Position numbers and translations under genes: made by a program. A DNA stretch of 62,918 bases, the filler included, from Hausera hauseri (lineage: Eukaryota), in the NCBI GenBank assembly GCA_046269625.1. It is 11 parts of 11 records of this genome, joined end to end, with 100 filler letters (N's around TTAATTAATTAA, not from the genome) between each part and the next. Parts side by side here need not be neighbours in the genome. Positions count along the whole stretch, not along the records: positions 45,895 to 50,150 come from JBJURY010673106.1; 10 more parts are not named here. One strand, 5' to 3'. Shown in pieces: positions 1 to 62,805 of the stretch. The notes beneath the pieces are model-generated. The model was given only the letters and a program-made list of their open reading frames with translations, did not search any database and was not told the origin of the DNA. Every line of letters begins with the position of its first letter. Position 1 is the stretch's first letter.

Positions 1-2509
1 AAAAACCGTAGACAAACCAGGAATTTTGACAGAAGTCGATTTAGATGCAGAACCTGAATTCACGGTTGAAAAGGTAAATAAGACTACTGAAGAAGAGAGC
101 CGAGAAAGAATTCATGGAGCAACTGATACTTAAAATTACGAAAAATAGAGGCCGCAGTCCTTCATTAAAAAGGAAACGTAGAAGTCGTTCACGTTTGAAA
201 GTAACTAGAGAGAAAACAGAAGAAACAAGAAATACAGACATCGCTGTAGAGAGCAATATAGAGCCTAGCTTAAATACACCAGAAATCGTTCCATTCACAC
301 CTATCAAAGTAAGAGTCTGTAGAGTCGGTTAACAAAATTAATGAGATTTGCCCAATTCTCATTAGTGAAGAAGAAAAGGGAGACATTGATTTTGATTCAA
401 GAAAATGGAATGTCCAGCGTTCGTGGGAAAACGCCGATGAATTGAAGAAAATGAGAATAAGATGCCACGATCCGGAAATATTACAACGAAATTTAGAAAG
501 ACTCAAGCAGATTAGCGAACAATTAGATATATCCGGCAATGAGCAACAATTTTCTGAGCGATTATATAAAAGCAATCGACTTAGGACAACTTGAAGAGGT
601 GCCACCTGAAGCACTAATAAAATGGAAACGTGAATTAGAATCATGGATTAAAAGTACAGTCGAATTTTCCGAAGGATGGAGCAAAAACGAAGACAATGTC
701 GATGGGATAGTCGCTAAAGCCCAAACGTTATTGTCTAATTTAGACAGATCCAATCAGAAGAGAGTAGTCCGTAATTTAGAGCGTATAATGTATGAAATTC
801 TATGTGCAATGATTAATTGACTTAGAGAAAAACCGGTTAGCAATCGAAATGATATTGATTTAGAAATATTGGGTATAGACCCAGTAGATATTTCTCCCTT
901 AATGGGGATGATAAAAATTGCCTTAGCTGAACCTAAACAATATACGAACCTAGAGGATCGTATCAGAATGGAGAATGAAAGGCGAACACAAATTTGTAGT
1001 GTGAGAAACCGAATTGTTTATAAATAACGAGGAAATCCAATAAGTAATAAAGGCTTGTTTCATAGAATTCGACGAATATAAGGATGAGTTTAATTACGTC
1101 AGCCGGGTCATGAATTTTATAAAAGGTCCAGATGACGAACTAAAGGATGTGTATAAGATGTTAGATAAGGCTATATCAGCAAAGCCAATAGTTGCTAATC
1201 AGTTGTCGGAATGGACAGAACTATTAACGGGACTAAGTAAATTAGCAGAAGATCGTACGAAAGAATTTACAGAAAGTGAGCCTTCTATAAAGAAACAATT
1301 AGAAGAAAACGCGCGTAACTTAGGTACAATAAAGGCAGAAATAGATATCCGAACTCAATTCCAAACATTACGACAACTATATTTTATGAAGAGCAAGAAG
1401 CGGCGATATTGGAAGATTTATAAAATGATCGAAGAAACAAACTTTACATAGAAGCGAAATGACTTGCAATTTATACCAAGATTAAGAAACATTCGACTAG
1501 GAGTCCAGTATTTAACAGCTAAATCTATGGACGAAATTTCAATGCAATATATCGAAACCTTAGGTATTTGTGCAGAACACAGAGCGGCTATAGAATAAGC
1601 AATGAGGTTCATACGAAAACCACAAGAATGGATGGCCGGAACAGATCAGAATTGCCATACCGAGTTGACAAAAATAAGAAATGACCAGCACTTTAGTTTT
1701 GAAGAATCCAAGTTTGTAAAAAAATTGCTCGATGCAATAGATACAGATTCAAAAATCATCACTGAAATGTACGAGATGGCCTTTCTCTTAGTAGAAATAG
1801 CAGAAATTAATGATGAGACAATTGATGCCTAAAATAAGACAAGCCGGAGAAACATGCATTAAAACTAAACAAAGAGCAACCAGGTTAGACGAACTAATGA
1901 AATAGCTTGAAGTCTATCGGAACAAATATGCTTTTACCGAGTCAGAGATCAAAAATAAGCGAGAATTTGCACAAAGATGGCAAAAAGATGTAATTATTGA
2001 ACAAACTAACTATTACCATAAAGGATTCATTCATTCTAATGAACTAGGCGAACTGCTGAAAACGATTCAGTATGCCTGTGGAAACGTAGTATAATTCTGG
2101 ACCACACAGATGAAAGAAATATAGTCAAGGCTAAAAGAAATTCGAGAGAATGTACAAAAGGCGAAGACAACACTAGTGGACTTCCAGACGTTGGAAACGA
2201 ACCAGAATGGGATGCATAATTAAATGCGTTAGCGACCGAAAATCCTGTGACTCAAGTACAGCTAAATAAAATTGAAACGTGTCTGCAGAATAGGAGATTT
2301 AATGTGGAGATGCTCCTGGATTCAGCGGTAACTGAAAAAGATTTAATTAAAATAATTAACGTAAATATTGCTGAAAGTAAGTTAAGACAACTTATTTTGA
2401 CACTAACTAAATTATCCAGTGAGAGCACGGTTTATAGCGCGGTGCCGAAACATTTGATAAAGAAATACTTTTGATAAGGAAAATCTTGAGGGAAAAGCCT
2501 GAAGTAACG

Positions 2510-2719
2510 ATGAGAGTAATGGTATCATCCGAGTGGATGGATGAAAAAGAATGTGAGTTAACTACTTATTCCTATGTAAGGTACATAAGAGAGTGGTTAA
2601 TAAATAATGTCGGAACAAATGAGTTAAATTATAGATTTTACTTTAAAGGTAGAATACTAGACGATTTAGAATAATTAATAGACGTCGGAATTATTCCAGA
2701 AGAAACAAATAGAATAGTA
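2510..2719 (+). pseudogene. Ubiquitin-like (beta-grasp) domain within the polyprotein, copy 1
   Basis: MRVMVSSEWMDEKECELTTYSYVRYIREWLINNVGTNELNYRFYFKGRILDDLE*LIDVGIIPEETNRIV aligns without gaps to ubiquitin 1-70. 15 identities by hand include G35, R42, F45, G47, L50, D52, L56, D58, I61. The stop at 2672 is CAA in copy 2. Confidence 0.65.
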
Positions 2720-3459
2720 GCAATAGTAGCCAAGGAACAGAACAAAGAAGAAGCCACACGAAATGCTAAGACAGAATAATGCGTAAGACAAATCATGGGA
2801 GTCCGAGATGCTACAATGTATTTTGAGTATTTACAAACGGATGAAGACAATGACCAATACGAGAATAATTTAGTGCCACTGAGTAAAATAATAACCTATG
2901 TTCCAAGATCAAAACGCCCGTCGGTAGGCCCAAGAAGATGCTAGAAGAAATTGACTATAATGGGGAATTGATTAGAGAGTTGAGACAAATGTCGATTCCT
3001 ACTTTCAGCACAGATAATGAAGAGTTAAACGAATTAATGAAGAATTTAATACGAATTGTAAATTATTCAAGCCTTCGAGGCAATACATTAGACGATAAGG
3101 AGAANNNNNNNNNNGCGATATTTAATGTAGCTAGAATGACGAGAAGTTCGCGTTTCAAATTATCCAAAAGCAACCTAATCGATGAATCGTTAATCGAAAA
3201 GATCATGGTGAAAAACGCCACTGAAGAATTAAGAAAAGTATTACTGTACTTAGCCATCAAAATAAACCATAATCGAAAGAATGAAATTAACAGAGCAACA
3301 AGCTTAGCACGAAAAGCGGCGAGAAGGCTACCATGCGAAATTAATTGGTCGAGATTATTCAATAAGGAAGAAGACAAACGATACAGAAACAGCAATAGAC
3401 TCGAAGATATGTTACGTAACTTGACAACGACGGATAATAGCCACCAGAAAAATGAATCC

Positions 3460-5300
3460 AATTGGTTAATCAGCTTACTTACCGTGATGATGCTTATAAA
3501 GTATATAGGTGCTGTCACTGTCTACGACTGCGATAAGTTTAAACTATGACAGAAATATTCTCTAATGGACTTAGAAGTATGTGAGGATTCCAGACCGCAC
3601 AAGTTAGAAATGAGAGAGAAAAGTTATTTTCTATACCAAAAACAAGAATTGATATCATTAGTTGGAGTGGAATGTATGGTGAGACAATCTCGTAGTATTT
3701 TTCACTGTTGAATAATGCACGGACATTCTTCAATAATCAAACCAACAACCCCGCCGATTCCGATGAACTTAGAACGACAGCACTGCAAACAAGCTAAGGA
3801 AGCCGGAAGATTAAAATGGGATAGTATGGAGCTAGAGATGCAGCCAGGAAAGATAATTAGAGCCTACAAAGTAGTAATTGGAAGGTTAGACATGCATAAC
3901 GGACATTATAACGGAGCGGAATGCGACACCGGAAAAGGATTAGAAGCAAACGTAGTAGTCGCAGATTTCTATGAATTAGAAATGCGAATACAGAAAGTAA
4001 TGTTCCATAGCCTCACCAAACTTTATACCGAAATCAAAAATGCCATTTACAAGACGGAACATGTGCTTTTAAAAGTTCTGTTATAATATGGGTACCTCCC
4101 TCTGGAAGAAGCTGTAATTTCATCAAGATTAAAGAAATAAAATTTAATAAAACCACCGGAAAGCGATATATGGATAAATGTGATATCAGTTTAAGAACAC
4201 GCGAAGACGTATCAGAACATCCTACACATACTATATTAATCTCTGCTCAGCATGGGTTAAAATTTATTAACAAAGAAATGATTTCTCGTTGTTAAGTAGT
4301 GATGTTCGCTACCAACTATGAAGCGTTCTTTGTCACAGAAACAAAAATAAATGCGAAGACTTACAAGTTGCAAACATAAGATATTCGGATTAAGGACTAC
4401 ATGAAAAACATAGATGATTATTTCTATTACAAGAGACAAGTCGGAATAACTGAATTATACCATAAAATGATAACAAACAATAGTAAATTAAATACGGAAA
4501 TCATGAGGACAAAGCTGGCTCTTATTTACGCTAATCCTGAGTTGGCATCCTCAATAATTCCTATGAGAGAAGGAATCCTCGGTCGAGTTACCGGTGAAGT
4601 TCTGTTGACTTACGAATATGAAAAAAAGACGTACCAATCAACGTTGAAGGAAAACGTTTTATATAGGAACTCCCCGTTATTTACCAGAATACTCCAAGGT
4701 TTGCCACGCCACTCACTAGAGCATTATTAGATAATGCAACCGAACCAACTATCCTAAAATATTGTAAAGCAAGCTTGGGAGAACCCATGTTTAGGCATAG
4801 TGAAACGGATTGGGTTAGTCTGCGAAGCGGAGGTATTACTGCCGTTCCAAATGAATTAACAGGAACATATCTCGCAAAAGGAATTACAGACGACAAATTT
4901 CAAGATACCTCATTGAAGGGTATAGATAGACCTAAGGAAATTGAAGCTTTCAGACAATTTCTCGTACGAGTTAAATCGAGCTATAGCATCCGTAGTAGAT
5001 GAACTCGGTATCAAGCTAAATGGTAATCCTTACTTGGCGTAAATCACTATCAGCGAGTAACCACAGAAATCCTCTATAAAACTTGGGGAAGATTTTTAAT
5101 CTTTGGACAAACCGCTTCCGGATTTCTAGCGATATATTTCCTAGTACAAATGATTAAGGCCGTCATTAAAGCAGTAATAAATGGATATGAAATATTTACA
5201 TTGACCGCATTTTTGTGCAAAATACTAACTACAATTATGACGCCTTTCGGAAAATTTTTAAAAGCATAGGAAGAGAATAGATGGAAATCGAACGTAGAAC
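3460..5300 (+). pseudogene. Chuvirus/Monjiviricetes-like class III fusion glycoprotein (env), copy 1
   Basis: Signal-like NWLISLLTVMMLIKYIGA, then VTVYDC...YSLMDLEVC; ECMVRQSRSIFHC*IMHGHSS (cf. chuviral CxxxxxRxxxHCGMHSH); LALIYANPE...GILGRVTGEVLLTY; TM FGQTASGFLAIYFLVQMIKAVIKAVINGYEIF. Confidence 0.8.
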
Positions 5301-5675
5301 GCCACATCGTTTAACACAATCGTAGACGGAAACGAAGACCTATGTTCTTATACAAGCGGAAGATCACAAAACCTAATATACGAAGAAATAATTCAGATGA
5401 TGACGAGCCTTAGGAAGCAGAAGTACTTTCGAAAACCGACAAGCACAAGACGTATTCCGTAACTAAAGCACCACTGCCTATGCTACCTCCTACTGCTCCA
5501 GTCTACGGAGACTGTGACAAGCGATCAATGAACTCGCATCAGACAGAAATATATAAGAGGACAATTAGCTTAGTAGACCTCTACGAAGGAACAAAACGTT
5601 ATGGAGTCTTACGAAAAATGTGTTATCGACAACCCATGGATGATTCCACAGTTTTGTATTCTACAAAAGAACCTA

Positions 5676-11155: not shown

Positions 11156-13189
11156 AGTCGTTGTACAGCTCTGAGATAAATTTATAATTACAATTTTTTT
11201 ATGAAAAATGAATGGTTAATTTTATGATTTAAAATATAGCTGTAGAAAAGAGCACCTGACAGAAACAAATAAACCAATATTAATACCGTTTTCCATTTAA
11301 CTGGAGATNNNNNNNNNNNNNNNNNNNNNNNNNNNNNNNNNNNNNNNNNNNNTTAATTAATTAANNNNNNNNNNNNNNNNNNNNNNNNNNNNNNNNNNNN
11401 NNNNNNNNCCCGACGAAACAAATCGAATCGTGAAAATAGTTCTATTGTTTTCTTTAAGTCCTGGAATCCGTCAGAGTATTTCTCTTCTGGTGTTAGATCT
11501 ATTAATTGAATGTAAGGGTGGCAATTGGATTTAGTAATGCAATCTTACCTAAAACAGTGGTCGTTGATTAGATAGCTGAGATTGAGGATTTAATAGAATG
11601 GTAATGAACCAAATTCTGCGTCACAGTTGTTGTCGTCAAAATTTTTCGTAGAATAATTATGTGTACTACGTCTGTCTTGGCAGTTTATATACTGTCTTGA
11701 TTTTTCAAAATCATTCGTCAGTTTCAATAATTAGAATTCCAGCCTTTGCTTGTTGGTGATAATTTTAAAAATTTGATCCATGCAATTTGAATAATTGCAT
11801 TTGTCGGGAATTGCTATGTTAGCTTGGGTGAGTTGCTGGATTAGGATTTTGAAAATTTCAAGCAATAATTTTTATTTTTGCCGTGGTTTTGATAATTGCG
11901 GTTGCCTGGACTTGCTACGAGGACCACATAATTTAGCTTCCGAAATTGGGTAATTATTTGTCTCGACATTCTTGTTTTGCTTTTTTCAATATTCCGTAAT
12001 TTCTGTATGGGACGACCCGTTGGGTACAGGTTTTAATTAACTGATATTCTTTAATAAATTTGGAATTCGAAAATATCAATCCATTAAATCTGTAAAAGTC
12101 TGGTAAACCTACTGTGAAAATCTGAAAGGCCACGAGTAAAATCTTTTATCAAAATTATTGGCAACAGGTGACTTATAAATGTGATATTCCGTGTTAGAAA
12201 TGCATGTAGTCGAATGTAACTAAATAATCCATCACGAATTTAAGTGAAAATAGATCGAATATGACATGTATCTTTGGATTTTTGAAAAATCAAACTTTAG
12301 TCATCTCACAATGATATATTTAAAAACATCGTCCACTCAGAAAAAACAAATATTTAAACAACAAAAAAGTATACAAATTAAAATTTTTGTTTGGTGGACC
12401 AATGTGGGCACCATACATCCATTGTGATTTTTGCTAATTCTCGAAATACGGAGTGTAGTTTCGCTGTTTCAGGCGCCACAATCATTTTCGAAAACCGAGT
12501 CAGCATTCGATACCGTTAGGCTGACGTGTTCTCCGCCTTACTCTTTGCCTTTTAGCTCTTGTTCGGTTGGCGGTCGACCGGTCATCTATTCAAAAATCAA
12601 CGATCGAAATACATTTTTATGTATAGTTTACGTGGATAATTCTAAAGTTGCTACGGATTTATTTTAGTCATTTTTGACAGTGATTTTTATAATAAATTGT
12701 ATAAGAGCGTTTTAAAATCCATCGGAGATATTAAAATCAGATTTTTACAAGAATGGCGAATTCAATTCAGTGATTTGGCAATTGGGCAACAGCAAACTGG
12801 AGTTGACGACATAAGCAGAGCAAATAACCTATTTGAATTAGACAAAGAATTTAGCAAAATCAATTTTTCATCCCGCCCTGTGGTGCCCACAGTGGCAGGT
12901 GTTCTTTGGCCCAGTTGGTCGGGCACAGCCGGGCGTCCGTTGCCGCCGCGTCGGGCCCATAGTCGGGCCCGATCTCCCGCCTCACGAATCTATTTACAGA
13001 ACACCTCTACCACTTTACAATACTGAAAATGGAATCTTCGTGGAAGGTGGACGTGTGATTGATCAAAATACGGTTATCCATCGGTGGTTACTAAACGCTG
13101 TATTTTTTGTTATTATATTCCTCGTTCTGATTTTTGTCTTATTTGCAGTTCTCTATTTCCTGAGGATGAAACGACAACAAAAATCAAAG

Positions 13190-14959: not shown

Positions 14960-16715
14960 TGTGATAATAACGGATAACAAGGTTGTAGAAAGATAAGAAA
15001 TCAGACCCAAGTATTTGAGATTGTGTGTCGGCAACAATGAACGTCCAATTAAAAATGTCGGTGAATGGTGGTAAAGTGAATGAATCTTGGACGTGCCGAA
15101 AATGTGTAAAGCTTGGCCGTTATCTGTGTACAATTTGGTGTTAAATGGAGAGGTGTATAGTGTTTTGATGGATGGTGGTAATAAAGCAACAGCTGCCACA
15201 GAGTCAATTAGGAAGTTGATTGATTGATTGAATTTGGAAGTTAAAGAGGCTTTTAATGTAAAAACTGCATAAGTACGGCTATTATGATGGAAACATTTGC
15301 CTGTGTCAAAACATCTGGCGGCTTTATGCGTTGTTTGGAGGCACGGGATTCATGTTGTTGGAAGGCGTAGGATGTGATGAATTAGATCTGTTAACGAATG
15401 TGCAACCTGTAACGCAATTCTGTGCTTTAGAATTAAATTTATTATATTATGTGCAGATAATATCAGATTGTTTGAAATGGGGCTCATAATATCTGCAACC
15501 TAAGCAGCATTTAGTCAACTTGTTTTTGAATTTAGTGTGGTAGTAACATACCATTGATAGTGTAGGTGACCTTGCATGCCTTGAATTTTGAGCTGAAGTG
15601 TGACTATGGTTTGCATCGAAACGATTTCGTCTAGGCATGGTCAAAGCTTCGATTTTTGACATGAGTGCAGAAATTGCTTGATGTATGTTGGCGTTTTCGG
15701 CACGTAAAGAATTTATCTGAGTTCAGATTAGCTATGTTGCTAGCTTGTTGAGTTGTTGGTGCTTGTAACGTAGCGGCTACTAATGGGGCTGCATGTACAT
15801 GTAATATCTTGTGGCTTTTGTCAGCCAGTTGTGCTAGTTTTTGTAGTGATGATGTGTCCTCTACTGTGGTCAGCAGGGCACGTGTGCCTTTGTGTAAAGA
15901 CTGCAGAAAATACCTGCGTAGTAAATTGGCGTTGTTTGCATGATTAACGCCTAGAATACTCAATTGAGTTAGTGAGGTCTGAAGGAATTCTGAGGGTTTC
16001 AATGTGCCTATGGTGTTGTCATTGAAATATATGTTGATAATTTTATCCAGAGATGGTACCGTGATTTTTAGAATTGAGTTAAAAAGTGTTTTGTATGGGT
16101 CAATGCTTTGGAAAATGTCAGACAAGTTGGGAAGCTGCGACTTAATGTTGGAAGGCAGAAGTATAAGCAAGCTGTTTGCTTTAAGAAACGAGTCGACAAT
16201 ATTATTTGACTTCAACCAATCCTCATGAAAGTCCAACCACGTCCGGCTGGAGTGTTGCTTGTCGACGAAGTATTCTACACAAGGTAGATTTGCAGTAGAT
16301 GACGGAGGTATAGGTGAATTTAACGGTACACTTATAGTAAGAATGTCAGCAAAGGCCTTTTGGTCCTTAAAAGATGTTTTTGGGTCAGATCCACCTAGCC
16401 GACGGTAGTGTACGGTGAGTATAGATGTTGAAGATGAGTGTTTGTAACTTGTTATAGTGTCGGATTGTCGGAGAAAAAATGCACTATAACTAAGGCGAAA
16501 ATTAGCGAGAGTTGTTTGTCGCCGTAACGTGTCTGATAAATTTGCAATTATTGTTCACTTGTGTATGTAGTAGGTTTGCGTATGCTTATTTTCGAATAAT
16601 AAAACGAAAGGAACGAAAATGTTACATAGGTCGGGCGTGCAGTGTGGTGCATAAAACACGGGCGCGCCCAAAATCCCTGCATTGTAATGACTGATCTTTT
16701 TGACCTGGGTGATCA
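14960..16715 (-). mobile_element. gag: Ty3/Gypsy 5' fragment: leader, gag and protease (same family as 5776-9760)
   Basis: Gag DPYKTL...LKPSEFL...LLRRYFLQSL...LQKLAQLADK and CYYHTKFKNKLTKCCLGC knuckle. Protease region 14975-15290 is near-colinear with 9395-9710. Confidence 0.85.
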
Positions 16716-30980: not shown

Positions 30981-33159
30981 ATGCCGATCATGAGCAAGAA
31001 AGAACAGATTTCAACACTTATTCAGACGTCCTATCCGGCCCTTCAAGATGAATTATTTGATTATGTGAATGATATTTTGATTGAAAACGCTGATACATTT
31101 GTGTGTGTTGCTGAGATAAAGGATGCCATTGAAGGTGATGCTAAATACAATTAGTGAATTTATTAGTTACTTTTGATATTTAGGTATATTAAATGAAATT
31201 GATTCTACAAAATCTGAAGACGATGTCGTTTCTTTATGTGAAGATATTTTCAAAATTTTAAATATCGAAGGCAATCAAGTTAAACAGCCGATTTTACTGA
31301 ACAATCCAGTTTCTATTAGTGATTTAGTCGATAAAACAAAGCCGATTGTCTTTACGGATTTTTCCAAAGATGATTACCTGAAAAATTTGTGGACAACGCT
31401 GATTAGTGACGAAATTATTAAACAGAATTTAGCTAGAGCACAAGAAACAAAGCAAAAGAAACAGAAAAAGGAAACTGACGGAATGCACACGTTATTGATT
31501 AGTCAGCAATTCAGTCGAAATAATAATTTGAATGAAGCGGATAAAGATTGTAGCAGCTGTGATGGAAAAACAACAATCGTAAATTTTACAATTGATAATT
31601 TTGATATGTCCTTTGGAAGTAAAGTTCTACTAAAAGAAGCCTCAATATCCATTTCAATCGGTCAACGATATGGTCTGGTGGGTCGAAATGGATTGGGGAA
31701 AAGTACGTTGCTGAAAGCCATCTATTCCGGTGATTTGAAACTTCCGGCAAAAGTATCTGTTTTGTTGGTCGAACAAGAAGTTTTTGGCGATGATACTAAA
31801 GCCATTGATAGCGTGTTAGAATCGGATGTTGTTCGACATAATTTGCTCAAAGAACAGGAAACACTGAGCAAAATATCAAGTAAAGAACAAAATTCCAGAC
31901 GTCTATTTGAAATTTACGAAAAACTAAACGAAATTGAAGCCGATAAAGCTCCAACGCGTGCAGCGTTAATTCTCAATGGTTTGGGATTTTCATCAGATAT
32001 GCAACAGCAACCGACCAAATCATTTTCCGGTGGTTGGCGAATGCGATTATCGTTGGCAAAGGCACTTTTTTGTCAACCGGATTTATTGTTACTTGATGAA
32101 CCGACGAACATGTTGGACATGAAAGCAACGATTTGGTTGGAGGAATATTTGAAAACGTGGAAGAAAAGTCTGATTGTCGTTTCTCACGATCAGAAATTTC
32201 TCGATTCCGTTTCCACGGATACGCTCTATTTACATTCGTTAAAGATTGATCATTACAAATGCAATTTTACACAATTTCAAGTGGCATTGGAGAACAAAGT
32301 CAGCGCACAAATCAGAGAATATGAAAGCCAAAAATTATACCGGGAGAGTGTTCAACGGTTCATCGACAGATTCCGTTGTTATGCCAGTAAGGCCAGTCTC
32401 GTGCAAAGTAAAATTAAACTACTCGAACGACTACCGGTCATAGAAATGCCGGAACCGGAGATGGAAGTCGTATTTGATTTTCCGGAATGTGGCAATTTGC
32501 AAACGGTCGCTATTCAGGCCGATGATGTGTGTTTCGGATACGACGACAAACGGACTGTCATAAAGAATTTGGAAATCCAGGTTAGTTCCCAGAGTCGTGT
32601 GTGTATCGTCGGTGAAAATGGTGCCGGTAAATCGACTCTACTCAAATTGTTCATGGGCCAATTGGATCCACAGGGCGGTATGTTGAGAATCCACAAGAAT
32701 ATCAGATTTGGCTATTTCTGTCAGCATCATGTCGATCAACTCGACGTTCAACAATCGTCGTTGGACTTTCTTCGTTCGTCATATCCTGGATACGAACCAC
32801 AATACTATCGGGCGAGACTCAGGTATTTTGGCATCAATGGTGAGATGGCATTGAGACCAATTAACAGTTTGTCCGGTGGTCAAAAGTCTCGTGTGGCATT
32901 CGCCATTCTGTTCTTGAAAAATCCGAATTTTCTCATTCTTGACGAACCGACGAACCATTTGGACATGCAGACGATATCGGCGTTGGCCGAGGCAATCAAG
33001 AAATTTGACGGCGGCGTTATTTTGGTATCTCACAATGAGAAACTGATCAATGAAGTGTGCAATGAACTGTGGCTGGTGGAGAAGAATGGTCGTGTTAGTA
33101 TTGTTGATGGAGGTATTGGTAAGTATAGAGAAATGTTGTTGAAAGAATTGGAATGTTGA
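30981..33159 (+). CDS. ABCF3: ATP-binding cassette subfamily F member 3 (GCN20 homolog); exons 30981-31134 and 31184-33159, 709 aa (706 if the ATG at 30990 is used)
   Basis: Two ABC domains (GRNGLGKST/FSGGW/LLLLDEPTN; GENGAGKST/LSGGQ/FLILDEPTN) and no TM. Removing the 49-nt GT..AG intron joins an ABCF3-like N-terminus (ELFDYVNDIL...) in frame with no stops. Confidence 0.93.
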
Positions 33160-39649: not shown

Positions 39650-41059
39650 AATCACCCCCCCGTGGCAGAAGAAAAATATGTAAAGAAAAAAAAGAATGAT
39701 GAATATAATATAGATGAAAACTATAAATCGTAACAAGAAGTAATGTTTGGTTCCTATTCGGTTTTGGTCCGTGTTAGGCGTTGGACTCCATCTATGAACT
39801 TATCCCTGATGCAAGTAGTAAATATCACTTGGCGTGACCTGTTAGATGTTACTGGTGCTTGTGAAGTTGTTTGCGGGAGAGATATTGTGGATTCTGTGGT
39901 GCTTGAAAATGCTTCATGAAGAGGTGAAAGTGGAGAAGAAGCCGAAAAAGGAAAAGGATCACGCGCAGAAGATGAGACTGGAGATGTCAACAAATCGTGC
40001 GATGAAGGTGAAATGAGTAGTGGATATGCAGGCGATAAAGGAGAGGCAGATGGTGAGGGAACAGTGGATGATGGCGGAAGTGAAGAGAGCTAATTGTGAC
40101 GTGAGAGTGAATGCTGCGAAAGATTAAAATCATCAAGGAAATTAGATGATGGCTTGAGGGTGGAGAAGTTAGAGTTTGGATTTGAAATAATGCTGTTATC
40201 TTTGTCATCGTCAACAAAGAAGGCTGGCTTAAGATTAAAAATGTGTATGTTTTGAGCTTTGTCCTGGCGTAGAATAGTAGCGATGTGTGAAGAAAAGTTC
40301 AGTAATTTGTAAGGGCCAACGTATTGAGGCCGAAAACCAGAAGGCGACGGATCCTTCAGCCATACAAACTTGGCTGAGTATAAGTCCTCTGGGATATAAG
40401 ATTTGTCTCTGTTTATAAAACGGCAGAAGGCATTTGAGTTGACATCAGCAAAGTGGGACTGTGTCGCTCGAATAACGTCATCTGACGGACTTTCATCGAG
40501 ATGGGAGAGCTGAAATAGTGCACGAACTTGTGTCCCAAAGAGAGCCGCAGCTGGGGCACAGCCTGTGTTGGTGGATGGCGTGTTGCACCAACCGAGTAGG
40601 ACAAGAGGAAGAATTGAGGTCCAGTTATGATTGTTGTTTGCCAGGATTTTTAATATAATCTTTATGGTACAATGAAATCTCTCGAGAAGACCATTTGCTT
40701 GGGGATGGTACGGCGTCGTATGAAAGTGGGCTATCCCCAAGTGCTTCACAAGAGATTTGAAAAGATCATCTTCAAATTGNNNNNNNNNNAAATGGCTGAC
40801 CCATATTTTAATAAATGCATCAGCTACTGAGTCAGCGTTGGTTGATCGAAGCGGAACGGCTTCCGGCCAGCGAGAAGCGCAATCCATCGTGGATAGGATA
40901 TATTGATAACCATAGTCGGCAGGTAGAGAACCCATAAGATCCAGTTGCACGGTTTCAAAACGAGAAGTTCAAGGGAAGTGGTACAGTGGTGGTCTGAGGT
41001 GTTTATGAACCTTGTACTGTTGACATGCTACACATCCTTTGACCCGGATTTGTACATCG
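39650..41059 (-). mobile_element. Ty3/Gypsy integrase and 3' end with PPT
   Basis: VQLDLMGSLP...RWPEAVPL...TTPYHPQANGLLERFH...GPYK. Minus-strand GCCACGGGGGGG followed by TG near 39654. Confidence 0.9.
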
Positions 41060-44146: not shown

Positions 44147-45894
44147 TTTAAATATTTTGGGTTGAATTAAATAAATAATGCATATTTTTAAAACAAATGA
44201 TCTCACTTAACAGGCTTTGTGATTTCGTTAGATTTAATTTTTTGTTTTTACTAATACGTTTTAAATCAAACAGAATAACATTTTCAATACTATAAATGAG
44301 GTTACAAAAATGCTCATGGTATTAACATTTAATTAATATTGATCTAAAAGCGTAGAAATTTTCATTTTATTGTTTAATTCTCGATTAATACATTGTTCTC
44401 AGGAATCTAGTTTTAAGTTATCAATTAATTAATAATTAAACTTATTAAAATTACTAATTTCGAAAGTGAAATGAAAAAGAAAAATTATGTAACGATACAT
44501 GTGTACATATATGTAAATTCCACAATTGGAAAATTTATTTCGTAATGTACGTCATCTAATTTCAGTTGTAAAAACATAGGTTTCAAATATACTGTATAGC
44601 TACCGTTAATCAAAATTTAAATTTCATAATATTCAGCAAATTGAATATTTAACAGAAATATACACATTAAGAAGTTAGTTTTATTGAACTTATTAATAAG
44701 CCAAAAGTTTATAGTTTATAACAATTTATTTATTTAACAATATTCGCCATATTTGGAAGAATTTACATTGAATCATAAATTAAGATGATAAAGTATATCT
44801 TAAAGCGCGATAACAAAACAATATTTGTGCACTATTTTTACAAATGAATACTTATAAATTACTTTGTCGCCTGTTCAATGCACCATTGGGTGAATATGAC
44901 AAGCTTCATAAAGAAAGTACATTAAATAGAAGTGTTATTCATGAAACTTATGTACGTTCGCAACATTTACGTATTGATATAATGGTTACACAAATATTCC
45001 AATCGCAACTTAATGACCATTGATCACCGTTCCTGACAAATTTTTACTGTTTTTCATATTATTTCCGTTAAGACGTATACCCAAATTGAGTTATATTTAA
45101 GACTGTAATTTATTATAAATAGGATACACTTAAAACTATACCAGGTGAATTTCAAGATTAACTGATGTTAAATTACTAGCAATCAGAGTGGTATCATTTT
45201 AAAACTTTATTATTAAAAACAAATTGTAACGTTGAACGTAAATTGTTTTAGCCATATTGTGAAGGATTAAAATTTTCAGAGCGATAAAAAATTCAAGTCG
45301 CACCAATTTAATATATAGTTTACTTAAAAGTAATTTTGGAATTTTTATACTTATTACCACAATGTTAGGTCAATAACACTCTTCAGATAACTAAATTGGT
45401 GTTTAATAAATGTTCATAATGTTACCTTTATTAATTCTTACTAAACTATTTTTATTAAACTATATACTTATAAATAAATTAAGTAGGTCATCGACAGTTC
45501 ACTATTTTTTGGCGAGGACTGTATTAATCAACATAAAATTGAGACATGTATAATTAATTTAAAAAAAACTGACTGGCAGTATAGTTCCTATTAAAACCGT
45601 CAGATATATTTAAACAGAGGACCTGGAGTAAAACTTTAAATTAAAAGAATACTTTTTAAATGTCTGTAAATGACTGGACCCATAAAACATTTCCAATGCT
45701 TCTGAGGTCCTTCATATTTACGACAACGTCTTGGTATTCTGGGTGACCAAAGTCTAATCATACACATAATTCACATTCAATGCAAATAAATTCANNNNNN
45801 NNNNNNNNNNNNNNNNNNNNNNNNNNNNNNNNNNNNNNTTAATTAATTAANNNNNNNNNNNNNNNNNNNNNNNNNNNNNNNNNNNNNNNNNNNN

Positions 45895-48800
45895 GCTAAC
45901 TGAAAGGGATTTAATTGAGCTAATTAACGTAAACATTACTGAAAGTAAGTTAAGACAACTTATTCCGACCTCAACTAAATTATTTAGTGAAAGTACAATT
46001 TATAGTACGGTGCCGAAACTTTTGATAAGGAAATACGCTAAAATTTTTAGGGCTAGACATGAGGTAACGATGAAAATAATGGTATCATCCGAGTGGATGG
46101 TTGAAAAGGAATGTGAGTTCACTACATATTCTTATGTAAGGGACGTAAGAGAATGGTTATTAAATAATGGTGGAACAAATGAGCTAAATTACAGAATTTA
46201 CTTTAGATGTAGAATACCAGACGATTTAGAACAATTAATAGATGTAGGAATTATCACCGCCAAAACAAATCGGATAGTACTAATAATAGCCAATGAACAG
46301 ACGAAAGAAGAAGCCACACGAAAAGCCAAGACAGACCAATGCATAGGACAAATTATGGGAGTCCGAGATGCTGCAATATAATTCGAGTATTTACAGACGG
46401 ATGAAAATAAGGAACAATACGACAAAAATTTAACACCACTCAGCGAAGTGATAGCCAATGTTCCAAGACTGAAACGCTCAGACGATAGGCCTAAGAAAAC
46501 GCGAGAAGAAGTGGACTACAATGGAGAATTGATTAGAGAACTGAGACAAATGTCAATTCCGACTTTCAGTACAAACAATGGGGAATTAAACGAGTTAGTG
46601 AAGAATTTAATACGAATTGTAAATTATTCAAGCCTTCGAGGTGATGTATTAGATGATAAAGAAAATATAATATTTGATGCAGCTAGAATGATGAGAATTT
46701 CACGTTTTAAACTATCAAAAAGTAACTTAGCCGATGAATCGGTTATTGAAAAGGTCATAGTAGAAAACACTAATGAGGAACTGAGAAAAGTATTACTATA
46801 CTTAGCTATTAAAATAAAACCTAATCGACAGAATGAAATCAATAGAGCTGTAAGCTTAGCACGAGAAGCGGCGAGAAGATTGCCCTGCGAAGTAAATTGG
46901 TCAAGACTGTTTGACAAGGAAGAAGACAAACGGACCAGTAATAAACTTGACGATATGTTACGTAATTTGACAACGGCGGATGTTGTCCACCCGAAAAATG
47001 AATCAAATTGGCTAATCCGTCTACTTAGCCTGATGATGCTAATAAAGCACATAAGCGCTGTTACCATTTACGACTGCGATAAGTTTAAATTAGGGCAAAT
47101 ATATTCCCTAATGAATCTGGAAGTGTGCGAAGACGCCAGACCACACAAGTTGGAAACAAGAGAGAAAAATTATTTCCTGTACCAACATAGCGGACATTGT
47201 TACGGAGCGGAATACGACACTGGGAAAGGATTGCAAGCTAAAGTGGTAGTCGAGGATTTTTACAAATTGGAGATGCGATCACAGAAAGTAATGTTCCATA
47301 GTGTCACCAAGTTATACATTGAGAATCAGAAGTGTCATTTACAAGACAAAACCTGTGCTTTTAGAAGTTCTGTTATAATATGGGAGCCCCCTCTGGACGA
47401 AGTTGTAATTTTATTGAAATTAAGGAACTGAAATTTAATGAAACTACCGGAAAGCGATATGTGGATATATCGGATACCAACTCAAGGACACGCGAAGATA
47501 TATCAGAACACCCTACACCCAATATATTAATATCGGATCAGCATGGACTGATATTTGTTAAAAAAGAGATGATCTCTCGTTGTGATGCAGTGATGTTTGC
47601 TACTAACTATGAGGCACTTTTTGTCGCAGAAACGGAAATAAATGCAAAGACTTACAAACTAGAAACGTAGGATGTCCGAAATGAGGATTACCTGAAAAAC
47701 AGAGACAATTACTTCTATTACAAAAGGCAAGTAGGAATAACTGAATTATATTACAAAATGATAACAAATGACTGTAAATTGGATACCGAGATCATGAGGA
47801 CAAAATTAGCTCTTATATATGCCAACCCAGAATTGACTTCTACAATAATTCGTATGAGAGAGGGAATTTTCGGTCGGGTCACGGGCGAGGTACTGCTAAC
47901 CTACTAATGCGAAAAGAAAGATGTACCCATCAACGTTGAAGGAAAACGTTGCATTCAGGAACTCCATGTCATTTATCAAAATACTCCCAGGTTAGCTACA
48001 CCGTTGATGAGAGTGTTACTGGATAATGCAACCCAACCAACCATCCTTAGAGATTGTAAGGCAATCTTAGGAGAGTCCATGTTTAGACACAGTGAAACAA
48101 ACTGGGTTAGTATGCCAAATGGAGGTATCACTGCCGCTCTAAATAAATTAATAGGAACAAACCTTGCGAAAGGAGTTACGGACGATAAATTTCAAGACAC
48201 ATCGTCAAAAGGCATATACAGGCCTAAGGAAATCGAAGCCTTCAGACAATTCCTCGCTTTTCCGCGACAACGAACACATGAATTAAACCGAGCCATGGCC
48301 TCGGTAGATGATACACAATATTAGTCTAAATGGGAATCTTTACTTGACGTAAACCATTATCAGCGAGTAACCACAGAAATACTCTACAAAATTTGGGGAA
48401 GATTTTTGATTTTCGGACAAGCCGCATCCGGATTCTTAGCGATATATTTTCTGATACAAATGATTAAAGCAGTCATCCAAGCAGTAATAAATGGGTATGA
48501 AATATTTACATTGACTGGATTTTCATGTAAGATACTGACTGCAATCATAATGCCCTTTGGAAAATTCTTAAAAGCATACGAAGAAAATAGATGGAAATCA
48601 GACGTAGAACGCCATGTCCGTTATTATAATCGTAAACGAAAAGGAAAGCATATATTCTTGCAAAAGCGGAAATTTACAAAATCTAATATAAGAAGAAATA
48701 ATTCAGATGATGAAGAGCCTAAGGGAGGAGAAGTACTTTCAGGAATAAATAGACATAAGATGTACTCTGTCATTAAAGCGCCGTTGCCTATGCTACCTCC

Positions 48801-50150
48801 TACCGCTCCAGTCTATGAAGACTGTGACAAACGAACAATGAGTTCATATCAGACGGAAATCTATAAAAGGACAATTAATGTAAAAGACCCTTATGAAGAA
48901 ACAAAACATTACGGAATCCTACGGAAAATGTGTTACCGACAATCCGCGGAGGGTCCAAAGATGTTGTATTTTCCGACAGAACCTCAAAATATAAAAATAG
49001 ATCAACGATTTGGGATAATCCGAGGTTAAAAGACTTCCAAAATACCGAATTACACACTAACGATCGAGAAACATTAATTAGTGCACACGAAATGGAAGAA
49101 TTAAACATAGAAAACAACAAATTATATCGAAATGGAGAATTAAGGTAACTGGCAGAGAACATAGTATCCTCCCCAAAAAACCGAATCAATGGGCATAAGA
49201 TATCGGCAATAAAACGATCAAAGGATGCAGCAAACTGCTTCGGAACGGTGAAAGAAGGAAGACTTTTCGCCAAAGTCATTATCGAAGATAGGAAAGTTTA
49301 TGCCCTAATCGATGCAGGGTCCGAAATGTTTTACATTAAAAACGATTCAATACCTCAATCGTTAAGGGGACAATTATACCCACCATTCACAAAAGATCTA
49401 GGGAGTACAGGAGCTTTTGGTCAGATGTCGAAATCCATGTTTAAATGGAACCCAGAAGTCCAAATAGTTGGACAAATTTTTCGTCATGAATTTGCAGTTA
49501 TGGAACAATTAACCGATGACGTAGTCTTAGAATGTGATCTACTGAAAAGACTACCAAATATAGTGATCGACTTACAAACGGGGAAGCTGGTAAAGATCGG
49601 ACGGAATAAACGTATAAAAAACGCCAAAGAAAGAAAATTTGGAGAAGTATGGATACCTGTAGACGAAGACATTTCACCAAGAACAGAAATGATAATTTAC
49701 GTCCAAATACAGCAAGATGACGACCAACCGGTATATTTTGAACCACAAAATACATTAGATTCGAATATAATACTCAGCAATATACTAACAAGAGTACACT
49801 CCGGTCGGGTGCCGATCAGAATAGCTAATAACGCACAGATATTCGTCAGGCTTCATGCTTATACCACTCTAGGAAATACCTATAGAGTATCGTCAATAAC
49901 TAATGAAGTAAAACCTTACAAGTATGCTGAATTGCCACCTTATGTCGAAATTAAGTTTTAATCTCAGTCTTATTGTCGATTCTATGAATTATTATGCCGC
50001 TATAAATCAATTATCGCTAAGGACGAAGAAGATATCGGTAGAGCGAAAGCGTTAAAACTGATGATTCCACTGAAGAAAAATCATGGTTCGAACGAAAAAA
50101 TAGACTTGAAAGACCAGAAGATGACAAAATGGTACCCTCCGCCACATTCA
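45895..50150 (+). mobile_element. Decayed copy 2 of the env-bearing retroelement: UBL - helical - class III glycoprotein - tail - protease - pol start
   Basis: Colinear with 2325-5675. UBL 46070-46279; signal peptide and VTIYDC at ~47006-47077; TM ~48400-48560; retropepsin downstream. Confidence 0.8.
49149..50150 (+). pseudogene. Retroelement aspartic protease, beta-rich linker and pre-RT segment (Ty3/Gypsy-type pol start)
   Basis: VIIEDRKVYALIDAGSEMFYI (D at 49311)...HEFAVMEQLTDDVVLECDLLKR. Linker ISPRTEMIIYV...GRVPIRIANNAQIFVRLHAYTTLG. After one stop, in the same frame: FYELLCRYKSIIAKDEEDIGRAKALKLMIPL (cf. LL..Y.D.F......LG.T....H.I.L). Confidence 0.8.
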
Positions 50151-52769: not shown

Positions 52770-55200
52770 ATTTTGTAATGCTGAGTTTTGAATATTCGAT
52801 GAATATTTTTGTTTTGGCAGAACAACAAGAAAACACTCGAGCAAAACTTTTGTTGAGGTATTGGTTAACCTGCCTTTGAACTTTGTTTCATATATCGCTT
52901 GTCGTTATATTGTTAGAGAATCTCTCAATCTCAAACAGGAATCCACAAATTCAAATTGTTGTAGTTTTGATGAGACACCAAGACACGACGAGACAAAACG
53001 ACAAAATGCATCAATTCGTCGGCACAACAATTAATAACAAATAAAAAAATATGTAAAGGTCCTTGTTGGGCACAACATTAACCGCCCCCCCTCCCCCCGT
53101 GGCAAAGCAAAGAATGGAGAGGTAAGAAAGTAGAAAATGGGTAGAAACTGTATATGCAGTCTAAGAGGTTTTGTGTGGGTAAGACGTTGTACTCCTGCAG
53201 TGTTTATCTCCTTGTTTTAGGTCCTAAAGGTGACTGATTTGTGAATTTTCAATGTCATGGTTCCTGCTTGTGCAGGTGATTGAGATACAGTAAAATCGAA
53301 TTTGGTCGTGTTAGGTGTTGTTTCATACAAAGACGGGGAAGGAGATGGAGGATAAGATGTAGGAGAAGAGGGGGTAAATGTTGTTAGGGTAGTAGAATCG
53401 GAGATTGGAGGAGGTTATGGTAGAGAAGTAGAAATAGGGGTCGGCTTGGAAATGGGTGCAGGTGGTGGAGGAACTGAAGGAAGAAAAGGTGGAGGAGTGA
53501 AAAAGGAGGTAGAAGATTTAATTTGGGGAATATCATCTACGAAAAAGGCAGGCTTTACGTTGTTGATATGTACTGTTAGTTCCTTACCGTCTTTAGAAAT
53601 AATTGCATTGTGGGAATGCAATTGAATGAGTTTGTAGGGCCACAAATACCGTGGTTGAAAACCGCACGGCGTCTGGTTTTTCAGCCAGACGAACTTTGCC
53701 AAATATAAATTCTCCGATAAGTACGTTTTATTGTTATTTACGATCCTGCAGAAGGAATCTTTACTAACTGAGATAAAATGGTCCTGTGCCGTTCGGATAG
53801 CTTCGTCTGTAGGTGTATCTTCCAAGGCAGTTAACTCAAATAATGGACGTACAGGTGTTTCGAAAAGAGCTTCCGAAGGTGAACAGCCAGTAGAAGTAGA
53901 AGGGGTGTTACGCCAACCCAGAAGAACCAACGAAAGAAGAGTAGTCCAACTGCTGTTGAATTCTGCTAGTATTCTCAGTGACATTTTTAGTGTTCTGTGG
54001 AATCTCTCTAAAAGACCGTTCGATTGGGGGTGATACGGTGATGTGTGAATATGGCTGATTCCTAATCTGTTAACGAGCGATTTAAACAAATTGTACTCGA
54101 ACTGAGTACCTTGGTCTATAAGAATAAATCTAGGAGATCCAAATTTGCTGATCCAAGTGCGTATGAAAATGTCGGCTATTGTGTCCGTGTTAGTGCTCCG
54201 TAGTGGGACAGCTTCTGGCCAACGTAAGAAACGATCCATCATTGTTAAAATGAACTGATGGCTATTGTCAGGAAGAAGAGGACCAACGAGATCAACATGA
54301 ACAAATCCGAAACGTAATGTTCAAGGGAAATGATAAAATGGTGGCTTCAAATGTTTGGTGATTTTAAATTTCTGGCAGGCCACGCACTCCTTAACCCACG
54401 CTTCACACCAAAACGCATAGTCGATAATATTACTTGCCGGTGGAGTAAGCGAAAAGTTGCATTAGCACCAGGATGGTGCAATGAATGTACACTGTTAAAC
54501 GCTTGCCGTTGTAAAGGTGGTGCGAGAATTATTACGGAATGACATGGTTTAAAAATGTCTAAAGCCACGCCGTCAACAATTGTGTAAGACTTAAAAGAAT
54601 TAAGCATGTCCTGAGGTGGCCAGTTTTGTTGTAGTTGTACTTGAGAGAAGATTGGTGAAAAATTAATTGTACCAACCGTTCTGCATAAGAAATCGGCGAC
54701 TAAATTATTAACGCCGTTGATATGTTTGATATGGAAACTAAATGTTTATAGATACGATATGCGTCGCTCTTGACGTGTAGATGGGTGTTTCATAGACATA
54801 ATATTGACTAAAGGTTTGTGATCAATTTGAATAACAAAACTGCGATCTGTAAGTGGGAGAAATGTTTTAAGGTCAAAACTATGGCTAGTAGTTCTCCATC
54901 GAATGTAGAATACTTAGTTTCTGGTGGTGTTAATTTTCTAGAAAAAAATTTGAGTGGTTGGTTTTCGCCTTTGTATAACTGATGTAACACAGCGTCTTCC
55001 GTCGTGGTTGAGGCGTCTGTGGTAAGAATAAGTTCAGCGGCCGGCTTAGGAAATGCCAGAATTTCTACGGTTTTGAGGCCTTCTCGCAGTTTGTCAAACT
55101 TATCAAGAAAATCAGGTGTTCATTGGTTAGGTTAATGTTTTTTGCCGCCACTTAAGTCAGCAAATGGTGCTGTAAGTTTAGAGCAGTACGGCACATACTG
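52770..55200 (-). mobile_element. Ty3/Gypsy RNase H-integrase fragment with PPT and probable 3' LTR
   Basis: TTDAST...KYSTFDGELLAI; HSLHHPG; RWPEAVPL...DQGTQFE...SPYHPQSNGLLERFHRTLK. PPT GCCACGGGGGGAGGGGGGG (minus 53103-53085), then TGTTGTGCC at 53077. Confidence 0.9.
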
Positions 55201-59334: not shown

Positions 59335-62300
59335 CACGAGTGAGATGTGGTTAAAGTTGTGGCAATGAAAGGTGTTGAGAGATGTAGTAGTGAAAGGTAT
59401 TGAGAGGTATGGTGGTGAAAGGTGTTGTAGTGATAGGTGTTGAGATGTGTGGTGATGTAAGGTGTTGAGAGGTGAGGTGGTGAAAGATGTGGTAGTGAAA
59501 GGTGTTGAGATGTTTGGTGATGTAAGGTGTTGAGAGATGTGGTGGAGTAAGGTATTGAGAGGTGTGGTGGTGAAAGTTATTGTAGTGAAAGGTGTCGAGA
59601 GTTGTTGTGGTAAAAAGTGTGGAGTGAAAGTTGTTGATAGATGTGGTGATGTAGGGTGTTGAGAGGTGTGGTGGTGAAACGTGTTGAAAGTCGTTCTGGT
59701 CAAAGATGTTGTGGTGAAAGGTGTTGAGAGTTGTGGTGGTTTAAGGTGTCGAGAGTTTTTGTGGTGAAAGGTGTGGTACTGAAAGTTTATGAGAGGTGTG
59801 GTGATGTAGGGTGTTGAAAGGTGTTGAGAGTCGTTCTTGTAAAAGGTGTGGTATGGAAAGGTGTTAAGATGTGTGGTGGTGTAAGATGTTGAGACGTGTC
59901 GTAGAGTGAGGAGTTGAGAAGCATGGTGGTGAAACTTGTTGTAGTGAAAGGTGTTGAGATGTGTGGTGGTGTAAGGTGTCGAGAGTTTTTGTGGTGAAAG
60001 GTGTGGTACTGAAAGTTGTTGAGATGTGCAATTATGTATGGTGTTGAGAGTTGTGGTGGTGAAAGGTGTCGAGAGTTGTTGTGATAAAAGTTGTGGTAGT
60101 GAAAATTGTTGAGAGGTGTGGTGATGTAGGGTGTTGAGAGGTGAGGTGATTATAGTTGTGGTAATGAAGGGTGTTGAATGGTGTGGTGGTGTAAGGTGTT
60201 GAGTGGTGTGGTGAAGTAAGGTGTTGAAAGATGTGGTGGAGTAAGGTGTTGAGAGTTGTGGTGGTGAAAAGTGTGGAGTGAAAGTTGTTGATAGGTGTGG
60301 TGATGTAGGGTGTTGAGAGGTGTGGTGGTTTAAGGTGTTGAAAGTTGTGGTGGTGAAAGGTGTTGAGAGTCGTTCTGGTGAAAGTTGTGGTATTGAAAGA
60401 TATTGGGAAGTGTGGTGTTGTAAGTTGTTGAGAGGTGAGGTGGTGAAATATCTGATAGTAAAAGGTGTTGAGATGTGTGGTGGTTTAAGCTGTTAAGAGT
60501 TGTTTTGGTGAAAATGTGGTAGTGAAAGTTGTTGAGAGTTGTTGTGATGTAGGGTGTTGAGAGGTGAGGTGATGAAAGGTGTCGTAGTGAAAGTGTTGAG
60601 ACGTGTGGTTGTTTAACGTGTTGAGATGTGAGGTAGAGGAAGATGTGGTTGTGAAAGTTGTTCAGTGGTGTGTTGATGTAGGGCGATAAGAACTGAGGTG
60701 GTTAAAGGTGTGGCAGTGAAAGGAGTTGAATGGTGTGGTGGTATAAGTTGTTGAGATGTGAGGTGGAGAAAGGTGTGGTAGTGAAAGGTTTTGAGAGGTA
60801 TGGTGGTGTAAGACGTTGAGAGGTGTGGGTGTGAAAGTTTTGGTTGTGAAATGTGATGAGAATTATGGTGGTGTAAAGTGCTGTATTGAAAGGAGTTGAG
60901 AGGTATTGTAGTGTAAGTTGTTGAGAGGTGTGATGGTGAGGGGTGTTTCAGTGAAATGTATTGAGAGTTGTGTAGGTGTAACGTGTTGAGAGGTGAGGTG
61001 GTTAAAGCTGTGGAATTGAAAGGTGTTGAGTAGTGTGGTCCTGTAAATTGGGGTAGTGAAAAGTGTCGAGAGGTATTGTGGTTATGTTGTTGAGCGGTGT
61101 GATGGTGAAAGGTGATGATAATTATGGTAGTGTAAGGTGTTGAGAGGTGAGGTATTGAAAGCTGTGGTAGCAAAAATGTTGAGAGTTGTCCTGGGTTAAG
61201 GAGTTTTCCCGTGTGGTGTAAAAGATGTTGTAGTAAAAAGTGTTGAGAGGTGTTGTGGTAAGACCTGTGTTACTGAAAGGTGTTTAGAGTTTTGGTGGTG
61301 AAAGTTGTGGTAGTGAAACATATTGAGTGGTGTTGTGGTGAAAGGTGTTGTAGTGAAAAGTGATGAGAAATGTTGTGGTGTAAGGTGTTGAGAGTTGTGA
61401 TGATGAAAAATATATTAGTGAAAATTGTGGAGAGTTGCGGTGGTGTAATGTGTAGAGAAGTGTGGTGGTGAAAGCTGCTGTAGTGAAAGGTGTTGAGATT
61501 TATGGTGGTGTAAGATGTTGAGAGTTGTGGTGTTGAATGATACTTTAGTGAAAGGTGCTGAGATGTGAGGTGGTGAAAGATGTTTTAGTGAAAGGTGTTG
61601 AAAGTTGTGGTGGTGTATGGTGTTGGGATCTGTGGGGGTGACAAGTGTTGTAGTGAAATGTGTCGAGAGGTGTGGTGGTAAAAGTTGTGGTAGTGAAAGA
61701 TGTTGAGAAATATGTTGATGTAATGTGTTATTGTGAAATGTGTGGAAAGTTGTTGTGGTGTAAGGTGTTGAGACGTGTGGTGGTGTAAGCTCTTGTAGTG
61801 AAAGTTGTTGAGAGTTGTGGTGGTGTAAGGTGTTGAGAGGTGTTGTGCTGAAAGGTGCCTTACTAAAATGTGTTGAGAGGTGTGGTGGTGTAAAATGTTG
61901 AGAGTTGTTGTGTTGAAAGGTGTTGTAGTGAAAGGTGTTGAGTGACGTGGTTGTGTAAGGTGTGGTAATGAAAGGTGTTGAGAGGTATGGTGTTGTAAAT
62001 TTTTGAAATGTGTGGTGGTGAAAGGTGTTGTAGGGAAAGGTGATGAGATGTATGGTGGTGTAAGTTGTAGAAAGCTATGCTGGTGAAAGATATTGTACTA
62101 AAAGTTGTTGAGAGGTGTGGTGGTGTAAATTGTTGAGAGGAGTTGTGGTAAATGTTGTTAGTGAAATTTGTTGAGAAATGTTGTGGTGAAATATGTGGTA
62201 GTGATAGGTCTTCAGATGTGTGGTAGTGTAAGTTGTTGAGAGGTGATGTGGTGAAAGGTGTGGTTGTAAATTGTGGTGAGACGTGTGGTAGTGTAAGGTG

Positions 62301-62805
62301 TTGGCAGTTGTGGTGATGAAAGATATTTTAGTAAAATATGTTGAGAGGTGTGGTGGTGAAAGTTGTGGTAGTGTAAGTGTTGAGTGGTGTGGTGGTGTAA
62401 GGTGTGGTAATAAAAGTATTGAGTGGTATGTTGGTGAAAGGTGTTGTAGTAAAAGATTTTGAGAGATTTGGTGGTGTAAATTGTTGAGTGGTGTTGTGGT
62501 GAAAGTTGTGGTAGTGAATATAAGGAGAGGTATAATGTAAGATATCGAGAGTTGTGGTGGTGAAAGTTGTGATAGTGAAATTTGACGAGATGTATGATGG
62601 TGTAAGATTTTGATTTTTGTGGCGGTGTAAGATGTGGTAATGAAAGATGTTGAGAGGTATGATGATGTAATGTGTTGAACGTTGTGGTGATGGAAGGTGT
62701 GGTAGTGAAATATGATAAAAGTATGGTAGTGTAATATGTTGAGAGCTGTGGTAATGTAATGTGTTGTAGTGAAAGGTCTTGAGAGGTGTGGTAGTGTAAG
62801 GTGAG
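59335..62805 (+). repeat. Degenerate GT-rich satellite
   Basis: Shuffled units of ~10 nt (GTGTTGAGAG) and ~15 nt (GTGTGGTGGTGAAAG / GTGTGGTGGTGTAAG); almost no C on the + strand over 3.5 kb. Confidence 0.95.

Follow-up and report, generated by a model that had tools for sequence, protein, structure and literature searches.

The window analysed here, a 62,918-nt stretch of the Hausera hauseri genome (assembly GCA_046269625.1), carries at positions 45895-50150 what is very probably a decayed copy of a high-copy long terminal repeat (LTR) retroelement of the Ty3/gypsy type, with the GAG-ENV-POL organization of the planarian Burro elements, in a fast-evolving animal. The whole stretch consists of short contigs with N44-TTAATTAATTAA-N44 spacers between them. 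Copy B of the element is the single contig 45895-50150 (JBJURY010673106.1) and copy A is a separate contig (1-5675), of which positions 2329-5674 align with copy B in two blastn blocks of 80.4% and 78.9% identity. The plus strand of copy B codes, in this order, for a ubiquitin-like (UBL) module, a helical domain, a signal peptide, a gB-like ectodomain, a transmembrane (TM) segment, a tail, a protease and a linker (Table 1). This order on one strand of one contig, first read from the sequence alone, is borne out by translation, Pfam and profile searches. Judged from its sequence, the element is a divergent (at most 34% identity) and decayed representative of an already described architecture, and its gene order is not new.

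The glycoprotein (env) matches the Monjiviricetes_fusion family PF24664 in copy B (E 1.3e-45, model positions 251-602 of 653), and in copy A the match extends to model positions 61-128 (E 9e-6). Its gB-type fold is suggested by a relative and not by the broken gene of the window: the predicted model of P0007 (pLDDT 80.9) matches herpesvirus gB with an E of 2e-13 and a TM-score of only 0.31-0.35. The pair of hydrophobic segments that follows the ectodomain (hydropathy 2.06 and 1.65) is found also in copy A, in which the tail is conserved with a third-position bias. In a quick env tree of 62 rows (8 of 70 were dropped for short overlap) the window env falls, together with 2 fragments and the envs of 13 polyproteins, in a group of 16 rows (SH-aLRT 98) that is separate from the free glycoproteins of ~650 residues. 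Insertion of a free-standing chuvirus glycoprotein is not supported, the signal peptide being internal and in frame with the upstream domains and the env grouping with those of polyproteins.

The env search, unindexed and run among 1.84 billion representatives, returned 519 matches, 14 of them with an E of 1e-30 or better. Thirteen of these 14 were scanned for domains, P0012 (a 348-aa fragment) being left out. The protease follows env in the same open reading frame (ORF) in 10 of the 13 (that of P0008 is below the Pfam cut-off), four run on into reverse transcriptase (RT) and RNase H (RH), three of these reaching the integrase (IN), and three end in or just past env; none of the 13 has an integrase before env. 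The env-before-protease order is shared by P0017, P0151 (4,844 aa) and the metagenome locus L002, whose complete ORF of 2,693 codons reads gag-env-PR-RT-RH-IN (PR, protease). In L001 a gag with CCHC motif is followed by a ubiquitin-like module, a helical domain and env; a single stop lies ahead of the signal peptide. The single-ORF polyproteins P0001-P0011, P0014, P0017, P0151, L001 and L002 have envs 25-34% identical to that of the window, with which they have in common the signal peptide, the YDC start of the ectodomain and the protease after the TM segment; the UBL module is common to the window, L001, P0009 and P0014. Several of these polyproteins differ from the window element by tandem proteases and by a hydrophobic module after the integrase, a region that falls outside the window. 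The best match of the P0005 RT is the Ty3 RT (E 1e-82). The Ty3/gypsy class of pol (PR-RT-RH-IN) is seen in the relatives, and a pol of this class may be expected for the window element, which has no RT within its contigs. Word-indexed homolog searches among longer proteins were negative, with 975 candidates considered for the protease ORF and 1,022 for the env region. Pattern matches were confirmed in none of 242 cases among viral contigs and in 2 of 175 among metagenome contigs.

Some features of these relatives deserve mention in their own right. A hydrophobic signal-like stretch lies after the integrase in P0002, P0003, P0011, P0151 and L002:440-8521, with a C-terminal TM-like segment in most of them (by eye); this may be another membrane protein encoded within the ORF. 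Retropepsin-like motifs number seven in P0151, five in P0009 and three each in P0001 and P0003, although one of the five in P0009, inside the UBL module, is probably there by chance. P0151 also has ankyrin and C2H2 matches. The complete env-pro-RT-RH-IN polyprotein P0002 (HBK71150.1) is labelled as a protein of a Flavobacteriaceae metagenome-assembled genome and most likely comes from a mis-binned animal contig.

The protease ORF of copy B resembles retropepsin clusters at 0.96-0.97 in the Atlas, with which the 10 best family matches all agree, and aligns with P0003 over 243 residues (BLASTP E 8e-18). Its IDAGS motif departs from the consensus of the relatives and is separated from the tail by ~93 codons of spacer. 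The ORF has no Pfam match, and a PDB sequence search with it gave a single match, DDI2, with an E of 0.7. P0002, P0003, P0005 and P0151, which match the window env, are collinear with it in tblastn over the protease-linker to ~50072-50084 (E 1e-9 to 2e-19). The linker occupies the position of the dUTPase-like domain of Burro (PMC6431247) but has no Pfam or PDB sequence match that would identify it as such. Protease, linker and pre-RT region all follow env in copy B; the RT itself is outside the contig, which stops a few tens of codons short of where RT begins in the relatives.

Upstream of env, domains were assigned with local profiles. The profile of L001, P0009 and P0014 matches 45851-46378 with an E of 9e-8, the best of 1,099 ORF pieces, which supports the UBL call, and L001 alone matches the module by tblastn in copy B (E 5e-5) and copy A (1.6e-5). 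Note that the ubiquitin label comes from the Pfam match of L001 itself, which is below the cut-off (E 0.0047). The helical ORF ranks first of the 1,099 with a four-sequence BCL2-like profile, if weakly, and has no match with a three-sequence one; the single-sequence fold of copy A 3115-3420 is uninformative, its pLDDT being 50.6 and its 50 rows of structural matches, with a best Z of 5.6, including no Bcl-2 chain. Among the relatives, P0007 has a Pfam Bcl-2 match below the cut-off (E 1e-3) just upstream of env, in a region common by sequence to P0001. ORF 46382-47431 joins the helical region, the signal-like stretch (hydropathy 1.73 in copy B, 2.06 in copy A) and the start of the ectodomain in one frame, and a hydrophobic stretch precedes the [AG][YF]DC motif in all 12 relatives examined by eye. 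The 2.3 kb upstream of the UBL module in copy A, a cut and broken contig, probably code for a further accessory or coiled-coil polyprotein. Their AT skew is 0.265, compared to 0.21 in the element and ~0 elsewhere. The Pfam matches of nine natural ORF pieces from copy A were all sub-threshold, the Atlas returned nothing at 0.9 or above for A 1044-1448, and AIR1, Smc, MATH, BIR, ankyrin and gag were not found in these 2.3 kb. The sequence-only reading had seen no gag between the tail and the protease; the CCHC motif is absent from every plus frame of both contigs and the gag profile of the relatives has no match anywhere in the window.

Table 1. Features of the two copies of the env-carrying retroelement in the window.
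Feature	Position	Strand	Basis
Helical-plus-ubiquitin-like accessory module; contig begins inside it	45895..46378	+	Relatives' profile, tblastn
Helical domain at the BCL2-like position of Burro and relatives	46382..47011	+	Position, weak profile match
Internal signal-peptide-like hydrophobic stretch, just 5' of the YDC ectodomain start	47012..47068	+	Hydropathy
Ectodomain, with lesions, of a Monjiviricetes/gB-type (class III) fusion glycoprotein	47069..48399	+	PF24664
TM segment (48400-48492) and weaker hydrophobic segment (48502-48558)	48400..48558	+	Hydropathy
Cytoplasmic tail, basic and proline-rich, ~156 codons; frame closes at 49027	48559..49029	+	Three-frame translation
Spacer in protease frame, overlapping the tail frame by ~130 nt; stop at 49146	48897..49307	+	Three-frame translation
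Retropepsin-type aspartic protease; IDAGS at 49308-49322	49149..49600	+	Atlas, BLASTP
Protease-RT linker and pre-RT motif; contig stops short of RT	49601..50150	+	Collinear tblastn with relatives
Copy A, second diverged copy, UBL module to tail	2329..5675	+	blastn, codon-position bias
Upstream part of copy A, heavily broken, no gag signature	1..2328	+	AT skew, stop counts

Both copies are dead as they stand. The aligned part holds 13 stop positions: copy B alone has 3, copy A alone has 9, and both have the stop at 47668/4377. Each copy also has a frameshift that the other lacks, near 4030 in A and near 47385 in B, and the lesions lie mostly at different positions, as had been stated. A reading of the shared stop, in the middle of the ectodomain, as a read-through signal was set aside because its codons differ between the copies and chance alone would give 0.1-0.7 shared stops. 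The ectodomain lesions of copy B are the loss of 255 nt present in copy A (A 3640-3894), one frameshift and three stops. Over the ~990 codons of the two-copy comparison, differences at first, second and third codon positions number 57/37/94 in the 360 codons that precede env, 58/40/165 in the 434 codons of the ectodomain and 29/26/60 in the 196 codons of the TM segment and tail. The third-position excess in all three regions indicates that all three were coding in active ancestors, and the divergence between the copies looks purifying-selection-like. The consensus was also claimed to be largely open over ~1,900 codons; this is not supported for positions 1-2328 of copy A, which are single-copy, with 49-68 stops per frame and a longest open run of 408 nt.

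Recurrence of the element was assessed in one sequencing run, X1, that contains the stretch and whose contigs were aligned at 80% identity. All 30 bins of 45895-50150 are covered by 15,057 contigs: 644 at 99% identity or above, 2,226 at 95-99%, 5,958 at 90-95% and 6,229 below 90%. Contig depth does not equal copy number, but this spread of identities implies many diverged copies. The region 49000-49300 is crossed by an identical contig (48933-49360), and a diverged contig (48804-49127, from the tail into the spacer), with 55 differences in 325 nt and one gap relative to copy B, reaches part of it. With 15,057 contigs over the 30 bins and relatives that match both sides of the junction in order, the earlier view of a replicated family and not of a one-off junction is upheld.

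The closest described counterpart is Burro/GYPSM1, presented in the 2019 review PMC6431247 as giant gypsy elements of dugesiid planarians with a very high copy number (Grohme 2018 and Jurka 2007 are cited there). Burro is larger than 30 kb with its LTRs and codes for a single ORF, gag-...-Ubi/SUMO-like-BCL2-env-PR-dUTPase-like-RT-RH-IN, with an N-terminal gag carrying CCHC knuckles and with AIR1, Smc, MATH, BIR and ankyrin in addition (PMC6431247). According to the same review, its env is related to mononegavirus fusion glycoproteins and decayed copies with stops and frameshifts are found in Dugesia japonica. The window element shares with Burro, in that order, the Ubi/SUMO-like module, the domain at the BCL2 position, the mononegavirus-type env, the protease and the linker. 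It resembles Burro also in the accessory module in frame with env, the very high copy number and the decay of its copies. Gag, AIR1, MATH, BIR and ankyrin, present in Burro, are not seen in the two truncated contigs of the window (4.3 and 5.7 kb). A targeted literature search on the in-frame env of Burro gave nothing beyond this review.

A second described group consists of Ty3/gypsy errantiviruses with GAG-ENV-POL order and an HSV/gB-type env, which occur in Nematoda, Bryozoa and Platyhelminthes and do not form one clade, as reported in PMC13524379; the nematode case is credited there to Sacco et al. 2022, and Smed_errantivirus_2 has up to 215 copies. Like them, the window element is multi-copy and has a gB-type env before pol. 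They differ in that the published elements are intact and LTR-flanked whereas the window copies are decayed and the element ends are outside the window, and in that the accessory modules of the window element are not described in the paper, whose main text makes no mention of polyprotein, in-frame, ubiquitin, BCL or Burro. The sequence-only reading, which held that known elements place env after the integrase, was wrong on this point, since env before pol is published for both Burro (PMC6431247) and the GAG-ENV-POL errantiviruses (PMC13524379). Its proposal of a replicated, enveloped lineage with an unusual order is retained for replication, for the presence of env and for its position before pro-pol, but the order had already been published. 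An enveloped-virus status may be inferred by analogy, as it is for the published Burro and GAG-ENV-POL elements.

Several points weigh against the Burro-like assignment. RT, integrase, gag and LTRs are in neither contig, and in copy B, the sole copy covering the junction of tail and protease, the one is read in another frame than the other. The likeness to Burro is one of described layout, and the BCL2-likeness of the helical domain is putative (E 0.45). The env tree is a quick one only, with the window row on a long branch (1.66). Depth in run X1 is lowest at 49019-49302 (866 and 558, against 2,200-57,000 elsewhere), loose ends are seen in 51 contigs at 48692, the identical and diverged junction contigs are among only 8 of 15,145 pieces listed, and the run may be the window's own source.

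The frames at the junction bear on an alternative in which the element is of the same kind but a regulated frame change near 49.0 kb, between tail and protease, yields less Pol than Gag-Env. The claim of a long polyprotein holds for the single frame that runs from the helical domain into env, but a continuous env-protease frame is not seen, the tail frame ending as indicated in Table 1. The ~130-nt overlap of the two frames would suit a regulated change, as would the indel table of the aligned contigs, in which only 47388 is listed and nothing at the tail-protease junction. The segment 48861-49040 has no slippery site of the XXXYYYZ type, however, and env and protease are in one ORF in 10 of the 13 top relatives and in Burro (PMC6431247). 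Copy B carries several other private lesions, and the diverged contig across 48804-49127 has one gap relative to copy B somewhere along its length, so that the copies differ in length there. A regulated frame change is considered unlikely.

It is very unlikely that the junction is a one-off event, in which deletion, nesting or misassembly placed an inserted chuvirus-like glycoprotein, or the env end of one element, beside the protease of another. Such an origin would agree with the junction depth being the lowest of the 30 bins, with copy A stopping at the equivalent of B 48984, before the junction, so that it does not reach the protease, and with the fact that short-read contigs of repeats can be chimeric. 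It is opposed by the four relatives P0002, P0003, P0005 and P0151 that match both sides of the junction in order, by the identical and diverged contigs found there, by the grouping of env with polyprotein envs and not with free glycoproteins, and by the uniform AT skew along the copy B contig. BEL/Pao elements with a chuvirus glycoprotein (Anakin) have env after the integrase, and their env is of the same PF24664 family, whereas the window env is before the protease and in another part of the env tree. That such an element is followed in copy B by an unrelated gypsy protease is scarcely credible and already largely refuted by the collinearity of relatives across env and protease and by the env tree: BEL/Pao elements do carry chuvirus-like glycoproteins (PMC13524379) and P0053 has a DUF5641 before env, but P0053 ranks 53rd and sits elsewhere in the tree, and neither copy has an integrase or DUF5641 upstream of env.

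For the Burro-like element, one ORF coding gag(CCHC)-accessories-env-PR-RT-RH-IN, as seen in relatives, may be extended by analogy to the window. One polyprotein would then be made, the internal signal peptide sending the ectodomain into the lumen of the endoplasmic reticulum. Once cut by signal peptidase, this peptide could remain as a membrane anchor for the upstream gag/accessory part. The TM segment would stop transfer and leave the tail, protease and RT-RH-IN cytoplasmic and tethered to Env, for which the second hydrophobic segment would have to stay out of the membrane. Gag and Pol would thereby be placed at the fusogen-bearing membrane and freed by the retropepsin, and budding particles with a class III fusogen could carry both between cells. 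The UBL and BCL2-position modules might tune host ubiquitination or apoptosis, by analogy with the host-control role that is proposed, and untested, for those of Burro (PMC6431247). Tentatively, the Burro layout, with ubiquitin-like and BCL2-like modules in frame with a class III fusogen in one gag-env-pol polyprotein, might mark a wide unnamed family beyond planarians, with the window element as a deep branch in an animal outside the recorded hosts; within such a family the signal peptide of env would serve also to anchor the BCL2-like domain in the membrane, in a flavivirus-like polyprotein topology. The relatives suggest that polyproteins combining UBL/BCL2 modules with env extend beyond the Burro elements described so far. 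The window element is a divergent, very abundant and decayed addition to a group of possibly infectious retroelements that has been little studied. If its host is neither a flatworm nor a nematode nor a bryozoan, the known range of the group would become wider, with consequences for dating the acquisition of gB-type fusogens by Ty3/gypsy elements.

The other contigs of the window carry animal genes (T-box, LRWD1, DIRP, TRAPPC8, RING finger, ABCF) and ordinary gypsy fragments identified with Pfam. The ABCF3 ORF (31177-33159) is uninterrupted over 660 codons and is 41-52% identical to the 120 matches listed (8,000 candidates scored), none of which is labelled flatworm; the host appears to be fast-evolving and to have no close relative among them. 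A degraded gypsy element of the ordinary kind, unrelated to the env-carrying family, lies on the minus strand of 5776-11308; its protease, RT (E 2.7e-18) and integrase zinc finger are arranged as usual, and an env was not seen. Fragments of gypsy integrase and RNase H at 53418-54320 and 40093-41058 (minus strand) are likewise not linked to that family. The contigs measured, retroelement copies included, have a CpG observed/expected of 0.99-1.25 and show no depletion. A 300-nt repeat is present on two contigs (9398-9699 and 14980-15280, 84% identity). The 3.4-kb low-complexity array at 59338-62803 consists of units of 15, 25, 40 and 65 nt; several frames are open on its minus strand, and it probably encodes a Thr/Pro-rich mucin-like protein.

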